This document shows positions 7,268 to 51,806 of a DNA stretch of 64,000 nucleotides, piece by piece (position 1 is the first letter of the stretch; the number at the start of each line of letters is the position of its first letter). The stretch spans positions 719 to 64,718 of the forward strand of contig CALVKO010000001.1 in assembly GCA_944332725.1 (NCBI GenBank), given 5' to 3'. Position numbers and translations under genes: made by a program. The DNA comes from an uncultured Bacilli bacterium (GTDB lineage: Bacteria; Bacillota_I; Bacilli_A; RF39; UBA660). The notes under the pieces were generated by a model that was not told the DNA's origin, did not search any database, and saw only the letters and a program-made list of their open reading frames with translations.

Positions 7268-8350
7268 TTAATTTTTTCCAACAAAAACGTCATATATTTC
7301 TTTATATCGATATCCTAACTTAGCATGAGTTGAATCACTTACTATAATACCTAAATTAATTAATTGATCAATTAAAATGGATATTGTATTTCTTGATACT
7401 CCTGTTTCTTCTTCGATTTCCTTTTTTGTAAATACAATTTGATGCATCATAGCAGGCATTATTCGATAAACAGCATTACTATTTAAAGTCTTAATTTTCT
7501 CCATATCTTTTTTATAGATTTTGTTAATCATATTTATTTTAGCAATATAATTATTACATTGTTCAATTATACATTGTAAGAAAAATTTTATAAAACCAAC
7601 AATATTACCTTTTCTACTTTCATTTAAAAATTTATGATAGCTAGGTTTATATAATTCTAAAACTTCTGACAAGAAAAGAATAGGCTCATCTTCAGTTAAT
7701 TTAGCTAATTGAATAGATATCAAAGCACGACCTAATCTTCCATTTCCATCTCGATATGCATGAATAGTTTCAAATTGATAATGTGATATTGCAAGATTAA
7801 TAAAAATAGGATCTATAAAATTATTATTCATGTATTTAAACAAATTATTAAGTAGAATTGGAACATCTTCTGGAATTGGCGGTACAAAAATTGCTTCATT
7901 GATACTACAACCTGTTGGTCCAATCCAATTTTGAATAGTTCTTATCTTGCCTGGTTCTTTTTCATTTCCTCTTACACTATCTAATAAAATTTTATGGATA
8001 GCATTAACAAAATGAATATTTATATCGTTATTTTCAACTAAATAATCTTTTGCATACTCTATAACTTTTTTTAAATTTTGTATTTCCAAATTATCATCTG
8101 TTTTAGGCATGTACTTTAAATAATACATTTCATCTTGTGAAATTTGTGTCCCTTCTATTTGTGTAGATTTTAAACTTTCACTTAATATAATAGAATCTAA
8201 AAAATATTTTGAATCAAATTCAACATTTCTTAAATATGACTTATATTCACCGTATTTATAATTTGCTTCAGCTATTAAATTTAAAAGTTCTTTATCTATA
8301 TTATATTCGATTGGTAATTCTTTAACTTTCATTGGATTCATCTTTATCAC
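7268..8350 (-). CDS. Fic family protein (Fido domain, probable AMPylase) with a C-terminal winged HTH.
   Basis: Canonical Fic motif HAYRDGNGRLGRAL (HxFx(D/E)GNGR). Confidence 0.85.
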   Translation of the reverse strand: MIKMNPMKVKELPIEYNIDKELLNLIAEANYKYGEYKSYLRNVEFDSKYFLDSIILSESLKSTQIEGTQISQDEMYYLKYMPKTDDNLEIQNLKKVIEYAKDYLVENNDINIHFVNAIHKILLDSVRGNEKEPGKIRTIQNWIGPTGCSINEAIFVPPIPEDVPILLNNLFKYMNNNFIDPIFINLAISHYQFETIHAYRDGNGRLGRALISIQLAKLTEDEPILFLSEVLELYKPSYHKFLNESRKGNIVGFIKFFLQCIIEQCNNYIAKINMINKIYKKDMEKIKTLNSNAVYRIMPAMMHQIVFTKKEIEEETGVSRNTISILIDQLINLGIIVSDSTHAKLGYRYKEIYDVFVGKN

Positions 8351-22182: not shown

Positions 22183-22995
22183 TCAAAAAATTTCAATTGA
22201 TGTTATTATCGATAAAATAACATCAAAATTAATATGACTATAATATAATATTAGTGCAGCTATACTTAAAAATGGTCCATAAGGTATTTCATGATTTTTA
22301 TTAGTTTTCAATATAAAAATAGAAACAGGTAAAGCAATAAAAGCAGATAAAAATATTGAAATAATTGCTAATTTCCAACCGATTATTAAACCAAATATAG
22401 CCATCAATTTAATATCGCCACCACCCATTGATTCTCTTTTAAATATAAAATCGCCAAACAATTTTAATAGCAACATTACTACAAAAGAGATTAAGGCACT
22501 TAATAAAGAACTTAAAAGAATATCAAATCCATATATAAAATAAATTTCAATTATTAAGAGAACTCCAAATATAATTAAAACACTATCTTCAATAATCATG
22601 TAATAATAATCGCTTAATATAACTATTATCAATAATGAAGTAAAAGTTAAAGCAATTATTAAATCTAGAGAAATACCAAATGATAAATAACAAATAACAA
22701 ATAATAATCCACAAATTATTTCTGATATTGGATAAAATATAGATATTTTACACTTACAATTAAAACATTTACCTTTTTGAAATATGTAAGATAATATAGG
22801 TATTAATTCAAACCAATTTAACACATGATTACAATTTGGGCAATGACTACTTGGATAAACAATTGATTCTCCTTTTGGTAATCTATATGCTACAACATTA
22901 TAGAAGGAACCAAATATGGTTCCTAATATAAATAATCCAATTATAAAACTTATTTCCATAAATATCCCCCTACATTTGTAAAGTACCATAGACAC
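22183..22995 (-). CDS. Prepilin peptidase (A24 family, PilD/ComC-like).
   Basis: N-terminal CxxC...CxxC zinc motif (CPNCNHV...CFNCKC), multi-TM body, and GGGDIKLMAIFG around the catalytic Asp. Confidence 0.85.
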   Translation of the reverse strand: MSMVLYKCRGIFMEISFIIGLFILGTIFGSFYNVVAYRLPKGESIVYPSSHCPNCNHVLNWFELIPILSYIFQKGKCFNCKCKISIFYPISEIICGLLFVICYLSFGISLDLIIALTFTSLLIIVILSDYYYMIIEDSVLIIFGVLLIIEIYFIYGFDILLSSLLSALISFVVMLLLKLFGDFIFKRESMGGGDIKLMAIFGLIIGWKLAIISIFLSAFIALPVSIFILKTNKNHEIPYGPFLSIAALILYYSHINFDVILSIITSIEIF

Positions 22996-27993: not shown

Positions 27994-29642
27994 AAATCTC
28001 TTCCCTTCTTAAATCTATTAATTATTTTATTTACAAATTTATCACCAAATACTACATTAAATAAATTATTTTTGTATGATAAATAAAAATATATTATTGC
28101 TCCGATACTAGCATATATAACAATTTCAACAAATGACCATAATCTCGTTGTTGGAAAACTTCCCAAAAATAACCTTATTATCATTAAAGATAACATCATT
28201 ATCCCATTTATTAATATAATTTTTATACTTGGCTCTAAACTACTTTTATAACTTAAACTATATATTTTTCTTAATTTATATAATAAATAGATAACTGCTA
28301 ATAATTGAACAACCATTGTAGTTAATATAGTTCCATAATATGCTTCAAAGCCAATAAACTTCACAAAATACATAGATGGAATATTTAATATTGCTTTTAA
28401 AATAAAACTACCTAATAATGTGCCTAACGCTAACTTAGGATTATTTAATGCATTAGTCGTATCGACTAAAATATAGAAAAACGAGTTAATTATAGTTTGT
28501 AAAATAAAGAAACTAAATACTTTTACACTTAAACTATCATAACCATAAAATATTGTCCAAACACTACTAGATAAAAAACATAATCCTAAAGTCATCGGTA
28601 AAGAAATAAATAAAATCATTTTTAATGTTTGATTTATTTTTAACGATACATCATTATAATTTTTCAATGTTGCACTTCTTACAATATTAGGTATTATACT
28701 AACTGTTAAACCAAAAGTAACCGCTAAAATAATCATATTTAATTTAGATCCCCAAGTAGTTACAATACTTAAAACATTTTCTGCTGTATTAATATCATAT
28801 CCTAATGGAACTAATCCTCTTACAATTGTAAATACATCAACTGTATTATATACTGATCTTATTAATTCAATTAAGATAAATGGTAAAGAATATAAAACTA
28901 TTCTCTTAAAAATTATTTTATTAGTTAATTTTCTTTCTTCTTTTTTTGGTAATTCATCTCTTTTTAATATTTCTCTATTTTTATTTATTTTATTGATTAC
29001 ATATAGATACGCTGTTAAAGCACCTGCTGTTGCTCCAAAGGTTGCAACACCAACTGTTGTAGCAATTGATAAATGAAATACTTTTAAAGTTAAATAGCTA
29101 CCACCTACAATCACTATTACTCTTACTAACTGTTCAATTACATTTGCTATAGCAGGAACAACCATCATTCTATGTCCTTGAACATAACCCTTGCTTACGC
29201 TTAAAATAGGTATAAATAATAAAGCAGTTGATATAACTCTAATTACAAACGTTATATCTTCTATACTATTACCGCCTTCGATATCTCCTATTATTAAATA
29301 AGATATTTGTGGTGCGAAAACAAATAAAATGATAAAACTTATTAATCCTAAAATAACTATTAAATATTTGCCTATTTTGTATGCTCTTTCCTGTGCATCA
29401 TAGTAACCTAAAGTGTTATATTCACTAACAGTTTTAGCCATCGCACTAGGTATTCCCGTTGATGATAATGATGCGAAAACTGAATAAATTGTATAAGCAT
29501 AACTATATAAAATAGCACCCTGTGTTCCTATTATTGCTCTAAAAGGAATAACATAAATTATACCTAATACTTTACATAAAACTATTCCAATAGTTGATAT
29601 TAATGCTCCTTCAACAAAGCTGTTTTTTTTCAATATAATCAC
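27990..29642 (-). CDS. MOP-superfamily flippase / polysaccharide biosynthesis protein.
   Basis: About 14 TM helices and an N-terminal region typical of Wzx/MurJ/SpoVB-type exporters. It overlaps the upstream Fic gene and the downstream lipoprotein gene by 4 nt each. Confidence 0.7.
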   Translation of the reverse strand: MIILKKNSFVEGALISTIGIVLCKVLGIIYVIPFRAIIGTQGAILYSYAYTIYSVFASLSSTGIPSAMAKTVSEYNTLGYYDAQERAYKIGKYLIVILGLISFIILFVFAPQISYLIIGDIEGGNSIEDITFVIRVISTALLFIPILSVSKGYVQGHRMMVVPAIANVIEQLVRVIVIVGGSYLTLKVFHLSIATTVGVATFGATAGALTAYLYVINKINKNREILKRDELPKKEERKLTNKIIFKRIVLYSLPFILIELIRSVYNTVDVFTIVRGLVPLGYDINTAENVLSIVTTWGSKLNMIILAVTFGLTVSIIPNIVRSATLKNYNDVSLKINQTLKMILFISLPMTLGLCFLSSSVWTIFYGYDSLSVKVFSFFILQTIINSFFYILVDTTNALNNPKLALGTLLGSFILKAILNIPSMYFVKFIGFEAYYGTILTTMVVQLLAVIYLLYKLRKIYSLSYKSSLEPSIKIILINGIMMLSLMIIRLFLGSFPTTRLWSFVEIVIYASIGAIIYFYLSYKNNLFNVVFGDKFVNKIINRFKKGRDL

Positions 29643-30604
29643 TTCCTTATGTTCCAGTAACCACCATTATCTGAACCGATTCTTTCTATAAAATTATTAT
29701 CGATTAATTTTTTTAAATTGTACTTAACTCCATCTGGTGTAATATTTAGTTTTTTAGCTAATTCATTTCTAGTAATACTAGGATTTTCATTTATATACTC
29801 TAATATTTTAATTTGATTTTTATTTAATTTCTGGGTAGTTTTCTGGGTAGTTTTTTCTAATGAAGAATTAATAATTTTCAACATAAAACTAATAAATATA
29901 TTAGCATTTCCATTAATATGACATTGAGCAATAGAATTATAATATTCTTCTTGATTTATATAAATTTCTTCTTCGATTGGAATATATTTAAAATTTTTAT
30001 TCCAATCAGTTAAAATTAAAGTTATCCAAAACCTTGCTAATCTTCCATTTCCATCACTAAATGGATGAATAGTTATAAAATAATAATGAAAAATAGAAGC
30101 AAGTATAATTGGATGAAGATCATTACCATTGATATATTCAAATAAACTTTCCATAAGAGATGGTACAACTAAAGAATTTGGTGCCATATAAATTATTTCA
30201 TCATCTTTCTTTGTTCCTTCACCGTGATTCCGATAGTAACCATTGTCATCATCAAAATATCTCATAAGCACTGTGTGTGCTTTTAAAAAATCTTCTTCAC
30301 TTTTCCAATTATAATCATCAATATGCTCATATAATTCATTAGCATTTTTTACTTCTTGAATTTCTTTTCTACTTCCTAATACTAATTTGTTTTCGATAAT
30401 ATTTTCAATTGAATTTAATGATAAGGTATTTTCTTCAATTGCAAGTGAAGAATAAATAGACCTTACCCTAGACTTAATTTGTAAATTTTTTTTTATACTA
30501 TTTTCTATTTTTATTAAAGATAAATTTTTTTCAATGTTTTTGATAATATTTTTATTATCTTCACTTATATAAAATATTGGATTTATTTTATCAAAATCTT
30601 TCAC
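29639..30604 (-). CDS. Fic family protein with a C-terminal wHTH.
   Basis: Fic motif HPFSDGNGRLARF. GTG start. Contains a 12-bp tandem duplication encoding KTTQKTTQK. Confidence 0.85.
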   Translation of the reverse strand: MKDFDKINPIFYISEDNKNIIKNIEKNLSLIKIENSIKKNLQIKSRVRSIYSSLAIEENTLSLNSIENIIENKLVLGSRKEIQEVKNANELYEHIDDYNWKSEEDFLKAHTVLMRYFDDDNGYYRNHGEGTKKDDEIIYMAPNSLVVPSLMESLFEYINGNDLHPIILASIFHYYFITIHPFSDGNGRLARFWITLILTDWNKNFKYIPIEEEIYINQEEYYNSIAQCHINGNANIFISFMLKIINSSLEKTTQKTTQKLNKNQIKILEYINENPSITRNELAKKLNITPDGVKYNLKKLIDNNFIERIGSDNGGYWNIRK

Positions 30605-31489: not shown

Positions 31490-32830
31490 CTATTCACATA
31501 AAACTGCACGGGCGGAATAGGTGGAATAACCACCACCTGCGCCGTAGTAGAAGTGGAACAAACCGGCATTCGAACCATAGATGAAGTAGCCGCCCCGAAT
31601 GAACCAGGAAGTACTAGAGTACGGAAAGTTCGCGTTATCACTATACCATCCACCATATTCATTTCCAAAAGTCTTTAATATTTCTTTTGTTGCATCTCCT
31701 AGTTTTCCTCGTCCATGAGTAGTCCAAGATGTCCCATAGGTATAACTATCGTAATATTTTGAATCTGGTGGGGTACTAAACCCTGCACTAGCTGAATAAA
31801 AATTTCCACTACTATTTACCATATTGCCCATTACATACTCCCAAGCTCCTCCACTCATATCATATACGCCATAGATATTTCCAGTTGTACTTGCTAACAT
31901 TCCTGTCGTTGTATTATATGCATTACAACTACTTGATGATGAGCTTCCAGCAGTTGCTCCACATCCTGTTACAAAATTACTATTATTATTTATATATACT
32001 TCTTCATTTATTCCATATTTACTATGGGATAGGTATGCTACTGCCCCCCATTCCATATTTTTCATCATATGGCTATCGCCGTTTAAACTATAACTTGTAT
32101 TTATATTTTGAATTGCTGTGAAAAATGACGATACTGTTTGACTTCTTAAACTTGTTACATTTGGTTTTATTGTTATCTTGCTTGTACTTCCACTTACCTC
32201 AAATTTTCCTACCCAAAATCCAGTTAATTCTTGCGTTCCTAAAGTAAATGCTGGATGTGTATACCAATTGCCATTTGTTGCATTTGTACAAGTTTCACTT
32301 GAAGTTGTTCCATCAGTTCCGCTTATATTATCAGTACAACTTACTGTTCCTGTTAAAGAAGTCCCACTTTCAAATTGTATTTGAATTTCTTGTTCGTTTA
32401 CACTTCCATTATCAGCGTTAAATAATTGATATTTATATCTTGGTATCCATACATACCATAAATCTATATCATCTTCAGTTACTACTTCACCTACGTTTTT
32501 TGTTGTATTCAAAACAACTGCATTGGCCCATTCTTTTGCATCATAATCATACCATTCTTGCAATACATCTGCTACTACCCAATTATTATTTTCATATTTA
32601 ATCGGTACCATATTATCTAATAATTCAGGCATATTGGCCCCACTATTATCCGCGTATTGTTTATTTGTATCACTATTCTCGCCATTCAATTCTTCCATTA
32701 CTTCATTTTTAAGTTTATCTAAAATCATTTTTCTAGCACCCATAATACTTAAAATACCGAATAGTAACAATAAAAATAAAATTAATAATGAATAAATAAT
32801 CCCTGATACAGCAAAACCTTTCTTATTCAA
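31490..32830 (-). CDS. Large pilin-like / prepilin-signal protein (446 aa) with a Gly/Ser/Thr-rich extracellular region.
   Basis: Probable TTG start at 32828-32830 preceded by a GAGGGTG RBS. This gives N-terminus MNKKGFAVSGIIYSLLILFLLLL, a class-III signal-like leader followed by F and a hydrophobic helix, with Gly at +5. The track start at 32884 is the TTG of a TTGATA -35 box. The last ~60 codons are GC-rich. Confidence 0.55.
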   Translation of the reverse strand: MNKKGFAVSGIIYSLLILFLLLLFGILSIMGARKMILDKLKNEVMEELNGENSDTNKQYADNSGANMPELLDNMVPIKYENNNWVVADVLQEWYDYDAKEWANAVVLNTTKNVGEVVTEDDIDLWYVWIPRYKYQLFNADNGSVNEQEIQIQFESGTSLTGTVSCTDNISGTDGTTSSETCTNATNGNWYTHPAFTLGTQELTGFWVGKFEVSGSTSKITIKPNVTSLRSQTVSSFFTAIQNINTSYSLNGDSHMMKNMEWGAVAYLSHSKYGINEEVYINNNSNFVTGCGATAGSSSSSSCNAYNTTTGMLASTTGNIYGVYDMSGGAWEYVMGNMVNSSGNFYSASAGFSTPPDSKYYDSYTYGTSWTTHGRGKLGDATKEILKTFGNEYGGWYSDNANFPYSSTSWFIRGGYFIYGSNAGLFHFYYGAGGGYSTYSARAVLCE

Positions 32831-32855
32831 TTTAAACACCCTCTTTACTATACAA

Positions 32856-32884
32856 ATTATATCAAATAAAAAATAATTTATCAA
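32856..32884 (-). promoter_or_regulatory. Sigma-70-type promoter for the pilin-like gene.
   Basis: TTGATA-17 nt-TATAAT sits ~30 nt upstream of the RBS/TTG start. Confidence 0.4.
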
Positions 32885-36349: not shown

Positions 36350-36377
36350 AAAAATCCTAACAACTAGGATTTTTCAA
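36350..36377. repeat. Direct repeat copy A (about 28-30 bp) containing the stop and terminator hairpin. It is identical to 37453-37482.
   Basis: AAAAATCCTAACAACTAGGATTTTTCAA. The TAG stop of the DUF1016 gene lies inside the hairpin at the same position as the gatB TAG in copy B. Confidence 0.7.
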
Positions 36378-37398
36378 TTAAATTTAAATTTTTCTTTTCT
36401 TCTTCAATAATTTCAATTAATTGTTCTTCGGTAGGAAAATTTAATCTATATTGTGATGCAAAAATAGTTTTATTATCTTTTGGTAAAGTATATTTTACAA
36501 CTGTTTTATTTTTATCAGTTGATAATAAAATACCAATAGTTGAATTTTCATCATCTTCCTTAATTACTCGATCATAATAATTAACGTATAATTGCATTTG
36601 TCCAATATCTTGCGGAGTTATTTTAGCAGTTTTTAAATCTATTATCACAAAACATTTCATAATTCTATTATAAAATACTAAATCCGGATAAAAATGATCT
36701 TCTTCGATTGTTATTCTAACTTGAGAACCAACAAACATAAAACCACGACCTAATTCAAGTAAAAACTCTTTTAAATGTTTTAAAATGTTTTTTTCTAAAT
36801 CCGACTCTAAATAAATTGTATTTTCTTTAATGTCTAAAAATTCTAATATAAAAGGATCTTTGACCAAATCTTCTAATTTATTTATAATATGTCCTTTATT
36901 AGCCAGCTCCAAAACTTTTTCTTTATCCTTTGACAATTTTAAACGTTCATATAATAAAGAGCATATTTGCCTTTGTAATTCTCTTACACTCCACATAGAA
37001 TTAATTGCTTCATGCAAATAAAAATTTCTTTTATCATTATCATTTATTTTTAATATTTCTAAATAATGAGACCAACTTAATTTGGAAGACACTGTTGTCC
37101 AAATTGGATATGTTAAATAAAATTTTCTCATTGTTCTTAAATTTCTAGATGAAAAACCTTTCCCAAATTCTTTAGTTAATTTTAATGACAATTTTTCTAA
37201 AACTGCTTCACCATAAGTTGCCCGTTCATCACCTTTTTGAATAGTCATTATAATTTTACCGATATTCCAATAAAGATTTAACATTTCTGTATTAACGGTT
37301 GTATATAATTTCTTACGACTATTAATTACTAAGCTTTTTATTTCATTAAACGTTAATTCAAATACTTGATTATCTATTTCTTGTAACATTTTAATCAC
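36364..37398 (-). CDS. YhcG/DUF1016 family PD-(D/E)xK nuclease, intact.
   Basis: N-terminal YhcG_N-like region (LYWNIGK, KLSWSHY) and a C-terminal nuclease core (ELGRGFMFVGSQ, IDLK). It is a paralog of 47327-48382. Confidence 0.8.
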   Translation of the reverse strand: MIKMLQEIDNQVFELTFNEIKSLVINSRKKLYTTVNTEMLNLYWNIGKIIMTIQKGDERATYGEAVLEKLSLKLTKEFGKGFSSRNLRTMRKFYLTYPIWTTVSSKLSWSHYLEILKINDNDKRNFYLHEAINSMWSVRELQRQICSLLYERLKLSKDKEKVLELANKGHIINKLEDLVKDPFILEFLDIKENTIYLESDLEKNILKHLKEFLLELGRGFMFVGSQVRITIEEDHFYPDLVFYNRIMKCFVIIDLKTAKITPQDIGQMQLYVNYYDRVIKEDDENSTIGILLSTDKNKTVVKYTLPKDNKTIFASQYRLNFPTEEQLIEIIEEEKKNLNLIEKS

Positions 37399-47326: not shown

Positions 47327-48382
47327 CTATAAAAAATCATTTTCTAATCTTTTTTCGATATCTTCAATACTAGGTAATGTATTTTCTAGAAATTCTGGTA
47401 TTTCTGATAAAATTTTATATTCACTCACACCAATTGGTTTATTAATATCTTTTAGTGCTAATTCAGCAGTTACTTTCTTTTTGTCTTTACATAACAAAAT
47501 ACCAAAAGTAGGATTATCTTTTTCATCTTTAATATACTTATCTACAGCACTTAAATAAAAATTAAGTTTTCCTGCATATTCTGGTTTAAATTCAGTTGTT
47601 TTTAGTTCAATTACAACATAACTTCTAACCTTTAAATTATAAAATAATAAATCAATATAATAATCTTCATTATCTATCTCTAAATGATATTGTCTACCTA
47701 TGAATGCAAAGCCATTACCTAATTCTAATAATAATTTGGTAATATTGGATATTAATTGTCGCTCAATATCTAATTCTTTTAAATCTTTATTATTTATTAT
47801 AAAATCAAATATATAAGGATCTTTTAATAAATATGCAACTTGTTCATTATTTGGACTTGGTAGCGTATTATCAAAATTTGTAGTTTTATTCTCTAATAAT
47901 GCTTGTCTTTCATATAATTTACTTGCTATTTGATGGATTATTATAGGTCTAGACCAACCATTTTTAACAGTTTCTTCAATATACCAATTTCTAATATTTT
48001 TTTCTTTTACTTGATCCATTATCGTTGTAATAGATGACCAAGGAATTTTTGCAACATAATGTTGCAAAAATTCATCATTGTCAAATTCAGTTGCAAATTT
48101 TTGCATATACCTTAAATTCCTAGCAGACATTCCTTTAATATTAGGAAATTCTATTTTTAAATCTTTTGCTAAAGTATCTATAAATGATAATCCCCATTTA
48201 TTATTCTCTATTAATTTTAAACCAATTTTATAATACATTAATATCAAATCTTTATTAGCATTGTCAATTATTTTATTTCTTGTAGTTATTAAAGTATTTT
48301 TTATATCATTTAAAACTTCAAAATATTGATTATTATTTTCTAGCATTATTACACTTCCTTTTAAATATTTTTTAAAACTCAT
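47327..48382 (-). CDS. YhcG/DUF1016 family PD-(D/E)xK nuclease, intact (third paralog).
   Basis: ELGNGFAFIGRQ and VVIELK motifs. The N-terminal region is homologous to the other copies. Confidence 0.8.
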   Translation of the reverse strand: MSFKKYLKGSVIMLENNNQYFEVLNDIKNTLITTRNKIIDNANKDLILMYYKIGLKLIENNKWGLSFIDTLAKDLKIEFPNIKGMSARNLRYMQKFATEFDNDEFLQHYVAKIPWSSITTIMDQVKEKNIRNWYIEETVKNGWSRPIIIHQIASKLYERQALLENKTTNFDNTLPSPNNEQVAYLLKDPYIFDFIINNKDLKELDIERQLISNITKLLLELGNGFAFIGRQYHLEIDNEDYYIDLLFYNLKVRSYVVIELKTTEFKPEYAGKLNFYLSAVDKYIKDEKDNPTFGILLCKDKKKVTAELALKDINKPIGVSEYKILSEIPEFLENTLPSIEDIEKRLENDFL

Positions 48383-48425: not shown

Positions 48426-49715
48426 ATGAAAAAAAATAAATTTATTATGTCTACTATTATTTTAATTATTGGGGGCTTTATAACAAAAATACTAAGTATG
48501 ATAATAAAAATAGTAATGACTAGACTAGTAGGTACTGAAGGTATTGGATTATATATGTTAGTTAATCCTACATTTATGTTATTTATTGCCATATGTACTT
48601 TAGGGCTACCTACCGCCATATCAAAATTAGTATCTGAAGATAAAAGAAACAATAAAAAATTAATTTTTTCTAGTTTGTTTTTAATAATTATTATTAATTT
48701 AATAGTTATGTTGTTTATATTTTTATCTGCTAAATTTATATCTAATAATTTATTACATGAAAGTAGAACCTATTATTCCATTATTGCTATAGCATTAGTA
48801 TTACCTTTTATATCCATATCAGGTATTTTAAGGGGATATTTTTTTGGTAAACAAAGAATGTTTCCTCACGTTTTATCTAATGTTTTAGAAGATGTAACAA
48901 GATTAATAAGTATTATTTTATTTACACCTTTCTTTTTGCTTAAAGGATTAGAATTTGCAGTTTCATTTTTAATATTATCCAATATTATTAGTGAATTAAC
49001 ATCAATATTAATATTATTTTTCTTCTTACCTAAAAACTTTAAACTATATAAAAAAGATATTACTCCATCTATGAGTAATATCAAAGATATATTAGAAATA
49101 AGTCTACCTACAACTGGATCTCGCTTAATAGGTACAATTGGTATGTTTTTTGAACCAATTATATTAACTTATTTTTTAATTAAATCAGGATTTTCTAACC
49201 AATATATTTTAAATGAATATGGTATTTTAAATGGTTATGTTATGCCATTAATATTACTTCCTTCTTTTTTTACAGGAGCCATATCTCAAGCATTATTACC
49301 TATAGTAAGTAATGGTTATTCAAATAAACATTATAAATATACTAAAAATAAAATTAAACAAGCCATATTTATTTCTTTATTAATTGGTATTCCCGCAACT
49401 ATTATATTTGTTTTAATACCAGAAATACCTTTAAAATTAATATTTAATACTAATCAAGGTATTACTTATATTAAAATACTAGCCCCTATTTGTTTATTAC
49501 ATTATATTCAATCACCATTAACTGCTTCTTTACAAGCAATGGGTAAAAGTAATTCTGCTATGTTTGGAACATTTTTAGGTATGATATTAAGAACTATTGT
49601 TTTAATAATCTGTTGTTTGTTTAAATTTGGTATTTATAGTTTAATAATAGCAAGTAGTATTAATATTATATATGTTACAATACATCATATAATAAAAGTT
49701 AAAAATTTAATATAA
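48426..49715 (+). CDS. SpoVB-like MOP-superfamily flippase (polysaccharide biosynthesis protein).
   Basis: Twelve or more TM helices and an N-terminal region similar to SpoVB/MurJ-type exporters. At 429 aa it is shorter than typical SpoVB and may be C-terminally truncated. Confidence 0.65.
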   Translation: MKKNKFIMSTIILIIGGFITKILSMIIKIVMTRLVGTEGIGLYMLVNPTFMLFIAICTLGLPTAISKLVSEDKRNNKKLIFSSLFLIIIINLIVMLFIFLSAKFISNNLLHESRTYYSIIAIALVLPFISISGILRGYFFGKQRMFPHVLSNVLEDVTRLISIILFTPFFLLKGLEFAVSFLILSNIISELTSILILFFFLPKNFKLYKKDITPSMSNIKDILEISLPTTGSRLIGTIGMFFEPIILTYFLIKSGFSNQYILNEYGILNGYVMPLILLPSFFTGAISQALLPIVSNGYSNKHYKYTKNKIKQAIFISLLIGIPATIIFVLIPEIPLKLIFNTNQGITYIKILAPICLLHYIQSPLTASLQAMGKSNSAMFGTFLGMILRTIVLIICCLFKFGIYSLIIASSINIIYVTIHHIIKVKNLI

Positions 49716-49763
49716 TTTTTTTAAAATAATATTTATATTAAATTTTTTTATATATATAAATTT

Positions 49764-49808
49764 AACACCAGTATTAGATATTCAATCGTATACTGGTGTC
49801 TTTATTTG
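49764..49808 (+). terminator. Rho-independent terminator of the flippase gene.
   Basis: AACACCAGTAT-15 nt loop-ATACTGGTGT followed by CTTTATTTG. Confidence 0.6.
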
Positions 49809-50039
49809 TTTTACTTTCTTTTAGCCTTATATCACCACAAGTGTTTACTATACTATCTTACCCCTCTTTGGCCACACGACTTCGCGTGCGGCTTATAAAT
49901 CCCTTCGGGATTTTACGCAATTAGTATCCTTTACTATCTTTCTCCCACTACATCGTCTGGGGTTACGTACTCTGGCGCCTCTAATTTAGAAAGGATGTTA
50001 GATTCATAGATATGGATAACTGGGCGCACGCCAACGTAG

Positions 50040-51089
50040 TCAGAGCGAGACGGCGAAGCCGTAGCTGAGGGCGCCGACGTCATGGACATCCCACGCGAGA
50101 TCAGGAATAGACACAACACTCAAGTTTGCTGGTGTTTTTGTCCAATAACCTTTACCTGCGTTACTATCTCCTGTGGTTTCTAAATTTATTGCTGCCCATT
50201 CTGGCAGTATATACTTTTCTCCTCCTGCTGCTATTATTGCTTCTCGACATTCGCTTCCACTACTACAATTCATTACACTTTCATTTGATTGCAAAAATCC
50301 ATAAAAATCTGTAAAATATTTACTTTCCCAATTCGATGTCTCTCCGCTTGACTCTAATTCTTTGTAATATTCTGTTAACTTCAATATTTCTTCGGCTTCT
50401 GGTAAATATTTCTTTGTTACTTTGTTCCAACTACTTGTTCTTTCATTCATTGCTGCTAGGGCTGTTATTGGGCCAAATTCATATAAATTTTGATTTTTTA
50501 CTTCATCTGAATCACTAGCCCAATTTCCTCCAGCACTGCTATAATCACGTATACTTATCCACGCTACTGTTCCTCCTGGTAAATTTCTATCTAATATTCC
50601 TACTATTTCATCACCATTTACTTCTAATACATAGATATTTTGGGTTTCACTATCACTTACTTGAACTTTTAATAAATCTCCTACTGCATATTTTGCTTCA
50701 GGTTTTTCTAAATCTCCTTCTACCATTGCATTATCTTGTAAACTATATGTATGACCATTACTTTCTACTTTTAGCCAAGTTAATTTATCGCTATATTCAA
50801 TTTCTAATACTTCAGCATTTCCTAAGTTTACCATTGTTGGTACATTTTCTTTTGTCATACTTGATGTACATATTCTAGTATAATTATTATCCAATTGATA
50901 TTTTACATCCTCTGTTGCACAATAGTTATTTATTCCACTATATATCATATTTGCCTCGGATAATCCTGCACTCTTTCTTGCATCTTCTACTACATCTAAT
51001 ATTATAGGTGTGGCAATAAGGGCTACTATTGCCAAAATGATAATAACTGCTAATAACTCAATTAGCGTAAAACCACGTTTTAAATTCAT
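50040..51089 (-). CDS. Type IV pilin / pseudopilin (large, 349 aa) with a canonical prepilin N-terminus.
   Basis: MNLKRGFTLIELLAVIIILAIVALIA prepilin cleavage/methylation motif (G|FTLIE). An AAGGAGG RBS is present. The last ~30 codons are GC-rich. Confidence 0.8.
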   Translation of the reverse strand: MNLKRGFTLIELLAVIIILAIVALIATPIILDVVEDARKSAGLSEANMIYSGINNYCATEDVKYQLDNNYTRICTSSMTKENVPTMVNLGNAEVLEIEYSDKLTWLKVESNGHTYSLQDNAMVEGDLEKPEAKYAVGDLLKVQVSDSETQNIYVLEVNGDEIVGILDRNLPGGTVAWISIRDYSSAGGNWASDSDEVKNQNLYEFGPITALAAMNERTSSWNKVTKKYLPEAEEILKLTEYYKELESSGETSNWESKYFTDFYGFLQSNESVMNCSSGSECREAIIAAGGEKYILPEWAAINLETTGDSNAGKGYWTKTPANLSVVSIPDLAWDVHDVGALSYGFAVSL

Positions 51090-51173
51090 TATAATTCCTC
51101 CTTATATTTAAAACTTACCTTGTTATATATATTGTACCATAATTTTTAAAAAATAAATTTTTTTTTGTAAATT

Positions 51174-51806
51174 TTAAATAGAATCAATACAATTATTTAC
51201 AATCCATTCCTTTAATTTATTCATATTATTTGTTTCATAATAATCGATTAACAAAGTAAAATATTCGCCTATTTTTTCAACTGGAACTGATATAATACCT
51301 TGACCATTTTTTATCATTTCCTTATTTGCAACTAAGTTTGCTACTCTTTTATTACCATCTAAAAACATTTGACTTCTTTGAATCCAACAAAATAAATTTA
51401 TACATCTATCTAATTTATTAGTAATGTTTAATATTTCTTTTAATTCTTGTTCATAATTACATTCACTAGGTAGTTTAGGAAGCCAAGAAGTACCTGTTAT
51501 ACCTACAACTTTTGTTCTAAAATCACCTAAAGGATAAATATTTTGTCCTTTACATATTTCAAAATGAATTTTTTTAATATAATCAATTGTCAAATCTTCA
51601 TCTATGGTATTAAATACATATTCCCAAGCATCTTTTAAGCCCTTTAATTTAAGCATATCATCTATTGAAATTTTCCCTGTATTAACATTATTCATAAATG
51701 AATAGGTATCTGCAAATGTTACTGCTATCCCTTCTAAATTTGCACTTTTATAGATGTTATCTACTAATTTTCTTTTTGCAAAAAATATATTATCTTCTTT
51801 AGTCAT
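51174..51806 (-). CDS. Fido (Fic/Doc-like) domain protein with a non-canonical motif.
   Basis: QMFLDGNKRVANL aligns to the Fic/Doc core FxDGNKR, but the conserved His is replaced by Gln. The gene start overlaps the metG stop by 8 nt. Confidence 0.55.
   Translation of the reverse strand: MTKEDNIFFAKRKLVDNIYKSANLEGIAVTFADTYSFMNNVNTGKISIDDMLKLKGLKDAWEYVFNTIDEDLTIDYIKKIHFEICKGQNIYPLGDFRTKVVGITGTSWLPKLPSECNYEQELKEILNITNKLDRCINLFCWIQRSQMFLDGNKRVANLVANKEMIKNGQGIISVPVEKIGEYFTLLIDYYETNNMNKLKEWIVNNCIDSI

Follow-up and report, generated by a model that had tools for sequence, protein, structure and literature searches.

The GC-rich island at the 3' end of a type IV pilin-like gene in an uncultured Bacilli bacterium is very probably the variable region (VR) of a gene that is a remote target of a diversity-generating retroelement (DGR). 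DGRs are a known kind of targeted hypermutation. The island was found in a contiguous stretch of 64,000 nucleotides (the window), and the VR within it is a segment of 101 nt on the minus strand (50020-50120), running from AGTGTTGTGTCT to CGCCCAG and delimited by alignment to a 103-nt template repeat (TR) in a related genome. Judged by its sequence, this segment is the recipient of adenine-mutagenised cDNA. The copy in the window has lost two template adenines and is frameshifted, and a retroelement cassette of the kind that would write it is encoded in relatives, and not in the window.

Composition of the island

The island is genuine, and no other in the window is as extreme: of all 100-nt segments in the 64 kb, 50020-50119 is the richest in GC, with 62% compared with 24.4% overall. 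A preliminary description had assigned 55-60% GC to all of 49850-50130. That figure suits the coding part, with a GC fraction of 0.59 at 50000-50099 and 0.53 at 50050-50149, and does not suit the interval as a whole, the profile being 0.38-0.48 across 49800-50049. The same description had called the GC-ending codons at the end of the gene essentially unused elsewhere, and the count agrees: the codons it named occur at 0.4-4.4 per 1000 elsewhere, and GC3 reaches 0.70 over the final 27 codons, compared with 0.16 for the remaining gene and 0.114 for a set of 19 long ORFs. Coding-strand A declines at the island from 42% to 11%, C increases from 11% to 34%, and T stays steady.

Searches for known RNA elements were negative at this position. 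With Rfam 15, both strands of 48500-51500 were free of matches at E<=1, and with the whole window searched nothing reached the gathering score at the island, the sole match in the window being a tRNA-Cys. ARAGORN found no tmRNA. A group II intron or retron, suggested by a GTGCG motif together with the hairpins, was considered and rejected: the segment is ~200 nt long, is coding in homologues and is without an RT.

Variable region and template repeat

The invariant scaffold was inferred from five VRs, and the degenerate VR pattern was then scanned against genome contigs. A first, all-adenine TR pattern had no match in the genome contigs; one of its codons had been given as GAY where the true codon is GGC. 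The degenerate scaffold gave five matches, all in MAGs named "uncultured Bacilli bacterium." The TR was found in MAG contig CALVYO010000002.1 (locus L013) as an untranslated sequence of 103 nt rich in AAC codons. Its first half reads AGTGTTGTGTCT AAC CCT GAT AAC GCG TGG AAC GTG AAT GAC AAC GGC AAC CTC AAC AAC, and its second half GGC AAC AAC GTC AAT AAC TCT GAC AAC GCG GGT GTT CGC CCA G. A TTGACA promoter precedes it, and a paralogous pilin-like gene follows ~190 nt downstream.

Differences between TR and VR fall on the adenines of the TR, which was taken from this sister genome rather than from the window. The window VR has 18 of the 31 adenine sites changed, 2 deleted and 11 kept, compared with changes at 7/72 non-adenine sites (Fisher p = 2.7e-8). 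The paralogue's own VR (L013a) has 19 adenine sites changed and 2 deleted of 31, and 0/72 changes elsewhere (Fisher p = 1e-14). When nine VRs are compared with the TR, 62% of adenine-site cells differ versus 10.5% of non-adenine cells. The TR has 51% GC and the VRs 54-69%, with 61% in the window VR, and the composition of the island is thereby accounted for.

Five of the seven non-adenine changes in the window VR are within the last block ahead of CGCCCAG (GTTGGCGTG in the VR, GCGGGTGTT in the TR). This GC-rich 3' block of the VR (GTTGGCGTGCGCCCAG; 50020-50035, minus strand) corresponds to GCGGGTGTTCGCCCAG in the TR, and TR/VR homology ends after CGCCCAG. The VR type of the block is common to the window and loci L003, L011 and L014; the TR version is found in L013a and L009, and a hybrid in L008. 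From its sequence the block resembles the IMH of a VR differing from the IMH* of its TR, and TR-type and hybrid copies would be expected from a variable 3' crossover. Six of the nine VRs are one codon shorter than the L013 TR, which implies that a second TR variant exists. At least three VRs and the TR are present in the single MAG BRZ_DM__bin25. Repeat and BLAST searches of the 64-kb window found no TR copy, and a lineage-specific TR pattern had no match in JGI metagenomes or IMG/VR.

The preliminary description had proposed a horizontally acquired or recombined 3' module. Horizontal acquisition is not supported, given the presence of the same gene family, with its GC-rich stretch, at several chromosomal sites in sister genomes. 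Recombination was correct in spirit, as the segment appears to be overwritten from a separate donor, a DGR template repeat of 51% GC whose adenines are randomised. Without a retroelement, acquisition or gene conversion between paralogues is extremely improbable as the source of the module: the VR, tail and UTR are indeed nearly unchanged among paralogues at different loci, and the whole gene is a little GC-richer than the genome, but the differences fall on template adenines with p from 1e-8 to 1e-14, a pattern that gene conversion does not predict, and an untranslated, AAC-rich template copy exists. The preliminary description had also reasoned that the same GC-rich codons in orthologous pilins of AT-rich relatives would signify a constrained structured region and speak against recent acquisition. 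GC-rich codons are present here in the relatives, but their bases differ exactly at template-adenine positions.

Hypervariability among homologues

In more than 70 homologues, variation is confined to the segment S.P..AW.V...G.L....GVRPV, and the flanks are conserved. Between the conserved SVVS and GVRPV motifs the residues are scrambled within the fixed pattern S.P..AW.V...G.L...., and in the DNA of the VR it is codon positions 1 and 2 that vary while position 3 stays C or T. This is the opposite of neutral drift and, at the level of sequence, the hallmark that AAC-codon mutagenesis leaves. Identity between the window and its syntenic orthologue L009 is 94-96% across relA and adjacent genes, and for that reason the MAGs are regarded as sister strains or species; the VR of L009 is different. 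Hypervariability among close relatives is thus limited to the VR.

Identical VRs also occur in proteins that differ elsewhere (window/P0001, P0003/P0004 and P0008/P0030), so at some loci VR turnover would lag behind the divergence of strains or have stopped, or else recombination moves the VRs. Contigs L008, L015, L020 and L021 end inside or beside a VR, a TR or the shared 3'UTR. Because these repeats break assemblies, RT-TR-VR linkage is hard to recover.

The pilin-like protein and its frameshift

The target gene in its current form occupies 50040-51089 on the minus strand of the ORF list and encodes 349 aa, truncated by a frameshift in the VR. The protein has a class III signal peptide with an N-methylation motif (PF07963 N_methyl, the type IV pilin N-terminal methylation motif; E = 1.4e-7) followed by a hydrophobic N-terminal helix, and when the homologue profile was compared with solved type IV pilins (PilE1, MshA and PilA) the N-terminal helix was the sole part matched. 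The homologues number 3114; most of the close ones have 384-390 aa, in contrast to the 349 aa of the window protein, and the full-length ones end ...GVRPVIHIYESNILSKLEAPEYV(N/T)PDDV... Exact look-up of the window protein and of P0004 gave no match.

The missing end is still encoded in the window. The tail that closes full-length homologues (...GVRPVIHIYESNILSKLEAPEYVTPDDVVGER) is found out of frame with the gene as far as 49934; it reads IHIYESNILSKLEAPEYVTPDDVVGER followed by a stop (49934-50019, minus strand) and today belongs to the ORF 49934-50119. The frameshift site is at 50045-50049 (minus strand), where AAT AAC of the TR is replaced by TCGC: GTC AAT AAC TCT aligns with GTC TCGC TCT, and the absence of two adenines creates a TGA at 50040-50042. 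The current gene ends 35 codons early. The TGA, taken in the preliminary description for the normal stop, is therefore a premature one made by the frameshift, the ancestral frame running on to the TAG at 49934-49936. The window allele is probably non-functional. P0001 has the identical frameshifted C-terminus in a protein that is different elsewhere, which indicates that the allele was inherited and is not an assembly slip. L013a has suffered an independent 2-nt loss in its VR, and P0006 and P0060 are also frameshifted inside the VR; the frameshifted alleles observed are those of window/P0001, P0006, P0028 and P0060.

The C-terminal part of the protein is best explained as a predicted DUF1566/DUF6273-type ligand-binding domain. 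The VR of a DGR target is expected in a C-type-lectin-like fold (DUF1566 or FGE-sulfatase type) or an Ig fold. In BFVD, the full-length AF2 model (pLDDT 86) matched DUF6273 proteins with E values of 1e-4 to 1e-2 and a DUF1566 protein with E = 0.011 and TMt 0.51. Pfam Lcl_C gave a weak match (E = 0.018) in 1/19 members, and DUF6273 was also weakly matched. Foldseek of the full-length model against the PDB returned no C-type lectin fold, and an AF2 model of the domain by itself was poor (pLDDT 65). The protein is presumably displayed on a pilus, and the likely purpose of its diversification is a varying binding surface shown on a pilus-like fibre. The window also encodes, at 22183-22995 on the minus strand, a prepilin peptidase (Peptidase_A24 with A24_N_bact), consistent with the processing of pilin-like DGR targets.

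Other genes of the neighbourhood include two that encode DUF1016/YhcG PDDEXK nucleases (47327-48382 and 36364-37398) and at least two Fic/DOC genes (51174-51806 and 7268-8350); a further gene at 29639-30604 is Fic-like by eye. The interval from metG to the MurJ-like gene varies among sister genomes: here it holds the pilin-like target and a Fic gene, and in L010 a DUF6273 protein.

Hairpins and terminator downstream of the target

Both hairpins reported in the preliminary description exist, on the minus strand. Hairpin 1 (AAATCCC-GAAG-GGATTT; 49897-49913) has a 7-bp stem and a GAAG loop; hairpin 2 (GCCGCACG-CGAAGT-CGTGTGGC; 49871-49892) has an 8-bp stem, including a G-U pair, and a CGAAGU loop. 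They sit in the 3'UTR, past the ancestral stop, and are common to paralogues at different chromosomal sites. Further downstream, a terminator stem-loop (ACACCAGTA...TACTGGTGT; 49765-49799) lies between the target gene and a converging MurJ/Polysacc_synt-type gene (48426-49715); its stem is 89% paired and includes four compensatory pairs. Across eight loci the pairing of hairpin 1 stands at 96%, with a single compensatory switch from C-G to U-A (L012), and that of hairpin 2 at 100%, two of its pairs being altered on both sides and three kept through wobble. The G-U pairs of the hairpins suit the sense strand only. The 3'UTR of L003 has been interrupted just past hairpin 2 by an IS256-type transposase (PF00872, two ORFs; L003 11240-13440), and the remaining UTR and terminator continue beyond the insertion.

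That a structured noncoding RNA gene, or a cis-regulatory RNA overlapping the end of the gene, explains the GC richness is very unlikely. It draws on the stability of the 3' region, whose 181 nt fold at -44.9 kcal/mol, much better than shuffled sequence (z = -4.7), on the compensatory and wobble substitutions by which both hairpins keep their pairing on the sense strand, and on the structured 3'UTR of the related target L036 (z = -6.5). Set against this are the Rfam and tmRNA results given above and the nature of the GC peak itself, since 50020-50120 is coding and hypervariable in homologues and the reading could apply to 49871-49913 only. The structured RNA that the preliminary description had envisaged is therefore not supported for the coding island; the idea stays viable for the hairpins at 49871-49913, which are conserved structures.

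With respect to the VR, the hairpins are unusually placed. The hairpins that accompany DGR targets have GC stems of 7-10 bp with GRNA loops, 4-34 bp after the VR (PMC3240598, Guo et al. 2011). No such canonical hairpin (GRNA loop, 4-34 bp past the VR) is present here, nor any within ~100 nt of 50020, and the distance from VR to hairpins is 107-150 nt. The two lineages with AT-rich, invariant VRs either are without hairpins (L004) or have degraded ones (L001), and L036 likewise has GC hairpins, ~95 nt after its VR. This association is suggestive, in a comparison that is confounded by phylogeny. The hairpins could be a distal element of homing or a 3' structure of the mRNA.

Retroelement cassettes in related genomes

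No RT, Avd or TR was detected within the 64-kb window, where RTs were sought by scanning for YxDD and by running ten ORFs of 270-460 aa against Pfam, and no RT or TR was detected in the first 21 related loci. The contig that bears the L013 TR ends 145 nt upstream of it, so the linkage of RT and TR in that genome is deduced from L036 and L041. A walk from the RNase J gene neighbouring the TR locus did not reach an RT: the target is absent there in one strain, and two contigs end in the shared 3'UTR.

A generic TR motif, GCNTGGAAYGTNAAYNAYAAYGGNAAY, matched 19 loci, and all motif loci with at least ~0.8 kb of flank on the RT side have an adjoining RT (IGNxxSQ and YxDD). In the relatives L036 and L041/L042 the order is MutS_I, bAvd, RVT_1, promoter, TR and pilin-like target. 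L036, of 23% GC, encodes a target with the same pilin-like N-terminus and the end ..AW.V...G.V...GVRPVI; on its opposite strand are an ORF of 139 aa, an Avd-like ORF, an RT of 398 aa, a promoter and a TR that ends in GGGGTGCGCCCAGCTTCC. The RT homologue P0355 has the chromosomal context MutS_I, bAvd, RVT_1, terminator, promoter, TR, spacer and pilin-like gene.

The three TR units (L013, L036 and L041/L042) can be aligned, including the TR end CGCCCAG(C/A)TT and the spacer GGAAACAAG..TTCC. The conserved spacer 3' of the TR (L013 3700-3855, L036 3760-3915 and L041 11410-11560) consists of GGAAACAAG..TTATTCC..CTTG, which forms a small hairpin, and then AGAAATAC. By analogy it may be the counterpart of the Sp region of BPP-1 that primes cDNA synthesis. 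Between the TR spacer and the target 3'UTR there are only short collinear matches, at a nonsignificant E of 0.05-0.2.

Remote targets and the MSL architecture are both documented for DGRs (PMC5758913). We infer that an RT and a TR are present in the genome from which the window derives, and that homing is still active. It is somewhat unlikely that the window copy is instead a fossil, written formerly by a DGR that has since been lost or inactivated, and now a frameshifted, decaying pseudogene. Such a history would accord with the lack of RT and TR in the window, with the identity of the frameshifted VR to that of P0001 despite differences elsewhere in the proteins, and with the AT-rich, invariant VRs and reduced or absent hairpins of the distant relatives L004 and L001. 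However, the VR has kept 61% GC in a genome of 24% GC with its flanks and IMH-like block intact, which points to recent writing, and sister MAGs at ~95% identity have the TR and several distinct VRs.

Proposed mechanism

We propose that a DGR writes the island in the following way. A cassette elsewhere in the genome, comprising a MutS-like protein, Avd, RT and a separately promoted TR, would transcribe the 103-nt TR, whose AAC, AAT and GAC codons are set on a G/C-rich scaffold for an overall 51% GC. The RT would copy the TR into cDNA with misincorporation opposite template adenines, and the cDNA would take the place of the homologous VR in pilin-like genes dispersed over the chromosome, at their 3' end, with the GC-rich ...CGCCCAG block as its limit. 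Changes from A to N in a GC-rich template, placed within a 24% GC genome, would leave an A-poor patch of 61% GC with NNC codons. In the window copy, two template adenines were lost rather than substituted, giving the frameshift.

The model can be extended into a larger proposal, which we offer as speculation and judge unlikely to be right in all of its parts at once: that one chromosomal DGR diversifies many type IV pilin-like loci; that VR frameshifts by adenine loss act as a reversible off switch, repairable by the next homing event; and that the double hairpin 107-150 nt downstream is a distal, noncanonical cis element of target recognition.

Comparison with known DGRs

The arrangement has a parallel in the Treponema denticola DGR (TvpA and remote targets) and in other nonphage DGRs, in which one TR serves several scattered VRs (PMC5758913). 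As in T. denticola, the VR is at the C-terminus of surface proteins, and the 64 kb that hold the window copy contain no cassette. The targets described here differ from those of T. denticola in their type IV pilin leader and N-terminal helix and in a conserved 29-aa tail between the VR and the protein end; the host, too, is different, an uncultured Bacilli lineage of 24% GC.

The cassettes of L036 and L041/L042 resemble Architecture D, that is, the MSL-containing DGRs, which include the Legionella pneumophila DGR (PMC5758913, Wu et al. 2018), in having a small MutS_I-domain protein, bAvd, RT and TR in that order. They depart from it in that the TR has its own promoter past the RT terminator and is followed directly by the pilin-like target; the cassette is, moreover, absent from the window. 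With the DGR of Bordetella phage BPP-1 (Mtd; PMC3240598) the system shares adenine-specific mutagenesis, a GC-rich 3' block with VR/TR differences at non-adenine positions, and variable crossover points within that block, as in the L008 hybrid. It differs from BPP-1 in lacking a GC hairpin with GRNA loop 4-34 bp past the VR, the hairpins here being at 107-150 nt, with GAAG loops and G-U pairs that suit one strand. The type V pilus adhesin DGRs of Bacteroides (bioRxiv 10.1101/2024.11.15.621889) are similar in belonging to a gut bacterium and in diversifying what is probably a pilus-displayed protein; they differ in phylum and target domain, and the prepilin signal here is type IV-like rather than type V.

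A second island

The window has a second GC island at 31509-31608, with 55% GC and 18% A compared with 39% A upstream. It falls at the C-terminus (31490-31650) of a protein of 464 aa that weakly matches FGE-sulfatase (gene 31490-32884, minus strand) and ends SWFIRGGYFIYGSNAGLFHFYYGAGGGYSTYSARAVLCE. The homologue P0118 is 66% identical to this protein overall and differs most in that same C-terminal stretch. There are no hairpins 3' of this island, and no TR for it was found. The second island is probably a second DGR target family.

Implications

A known mechanism here explains a striking compositional anomaly, and islands of this sort can serve as flags for remote DGR targets, which RT-centred surveys of fragmented metagenomes report missing (PMC8144416). 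The recurrent frameshifts in VRs and the conserved distal hairpins are small leads on the error spectrum of DGRs and on their recognition of targets. Our literature search found no paper tying DGRs to prepilin-type proteins. With the targets described here, the pilin-like proteins of uncultured, very AT-rich gut Bacilli join the surface structures that are diversified by DGRs.
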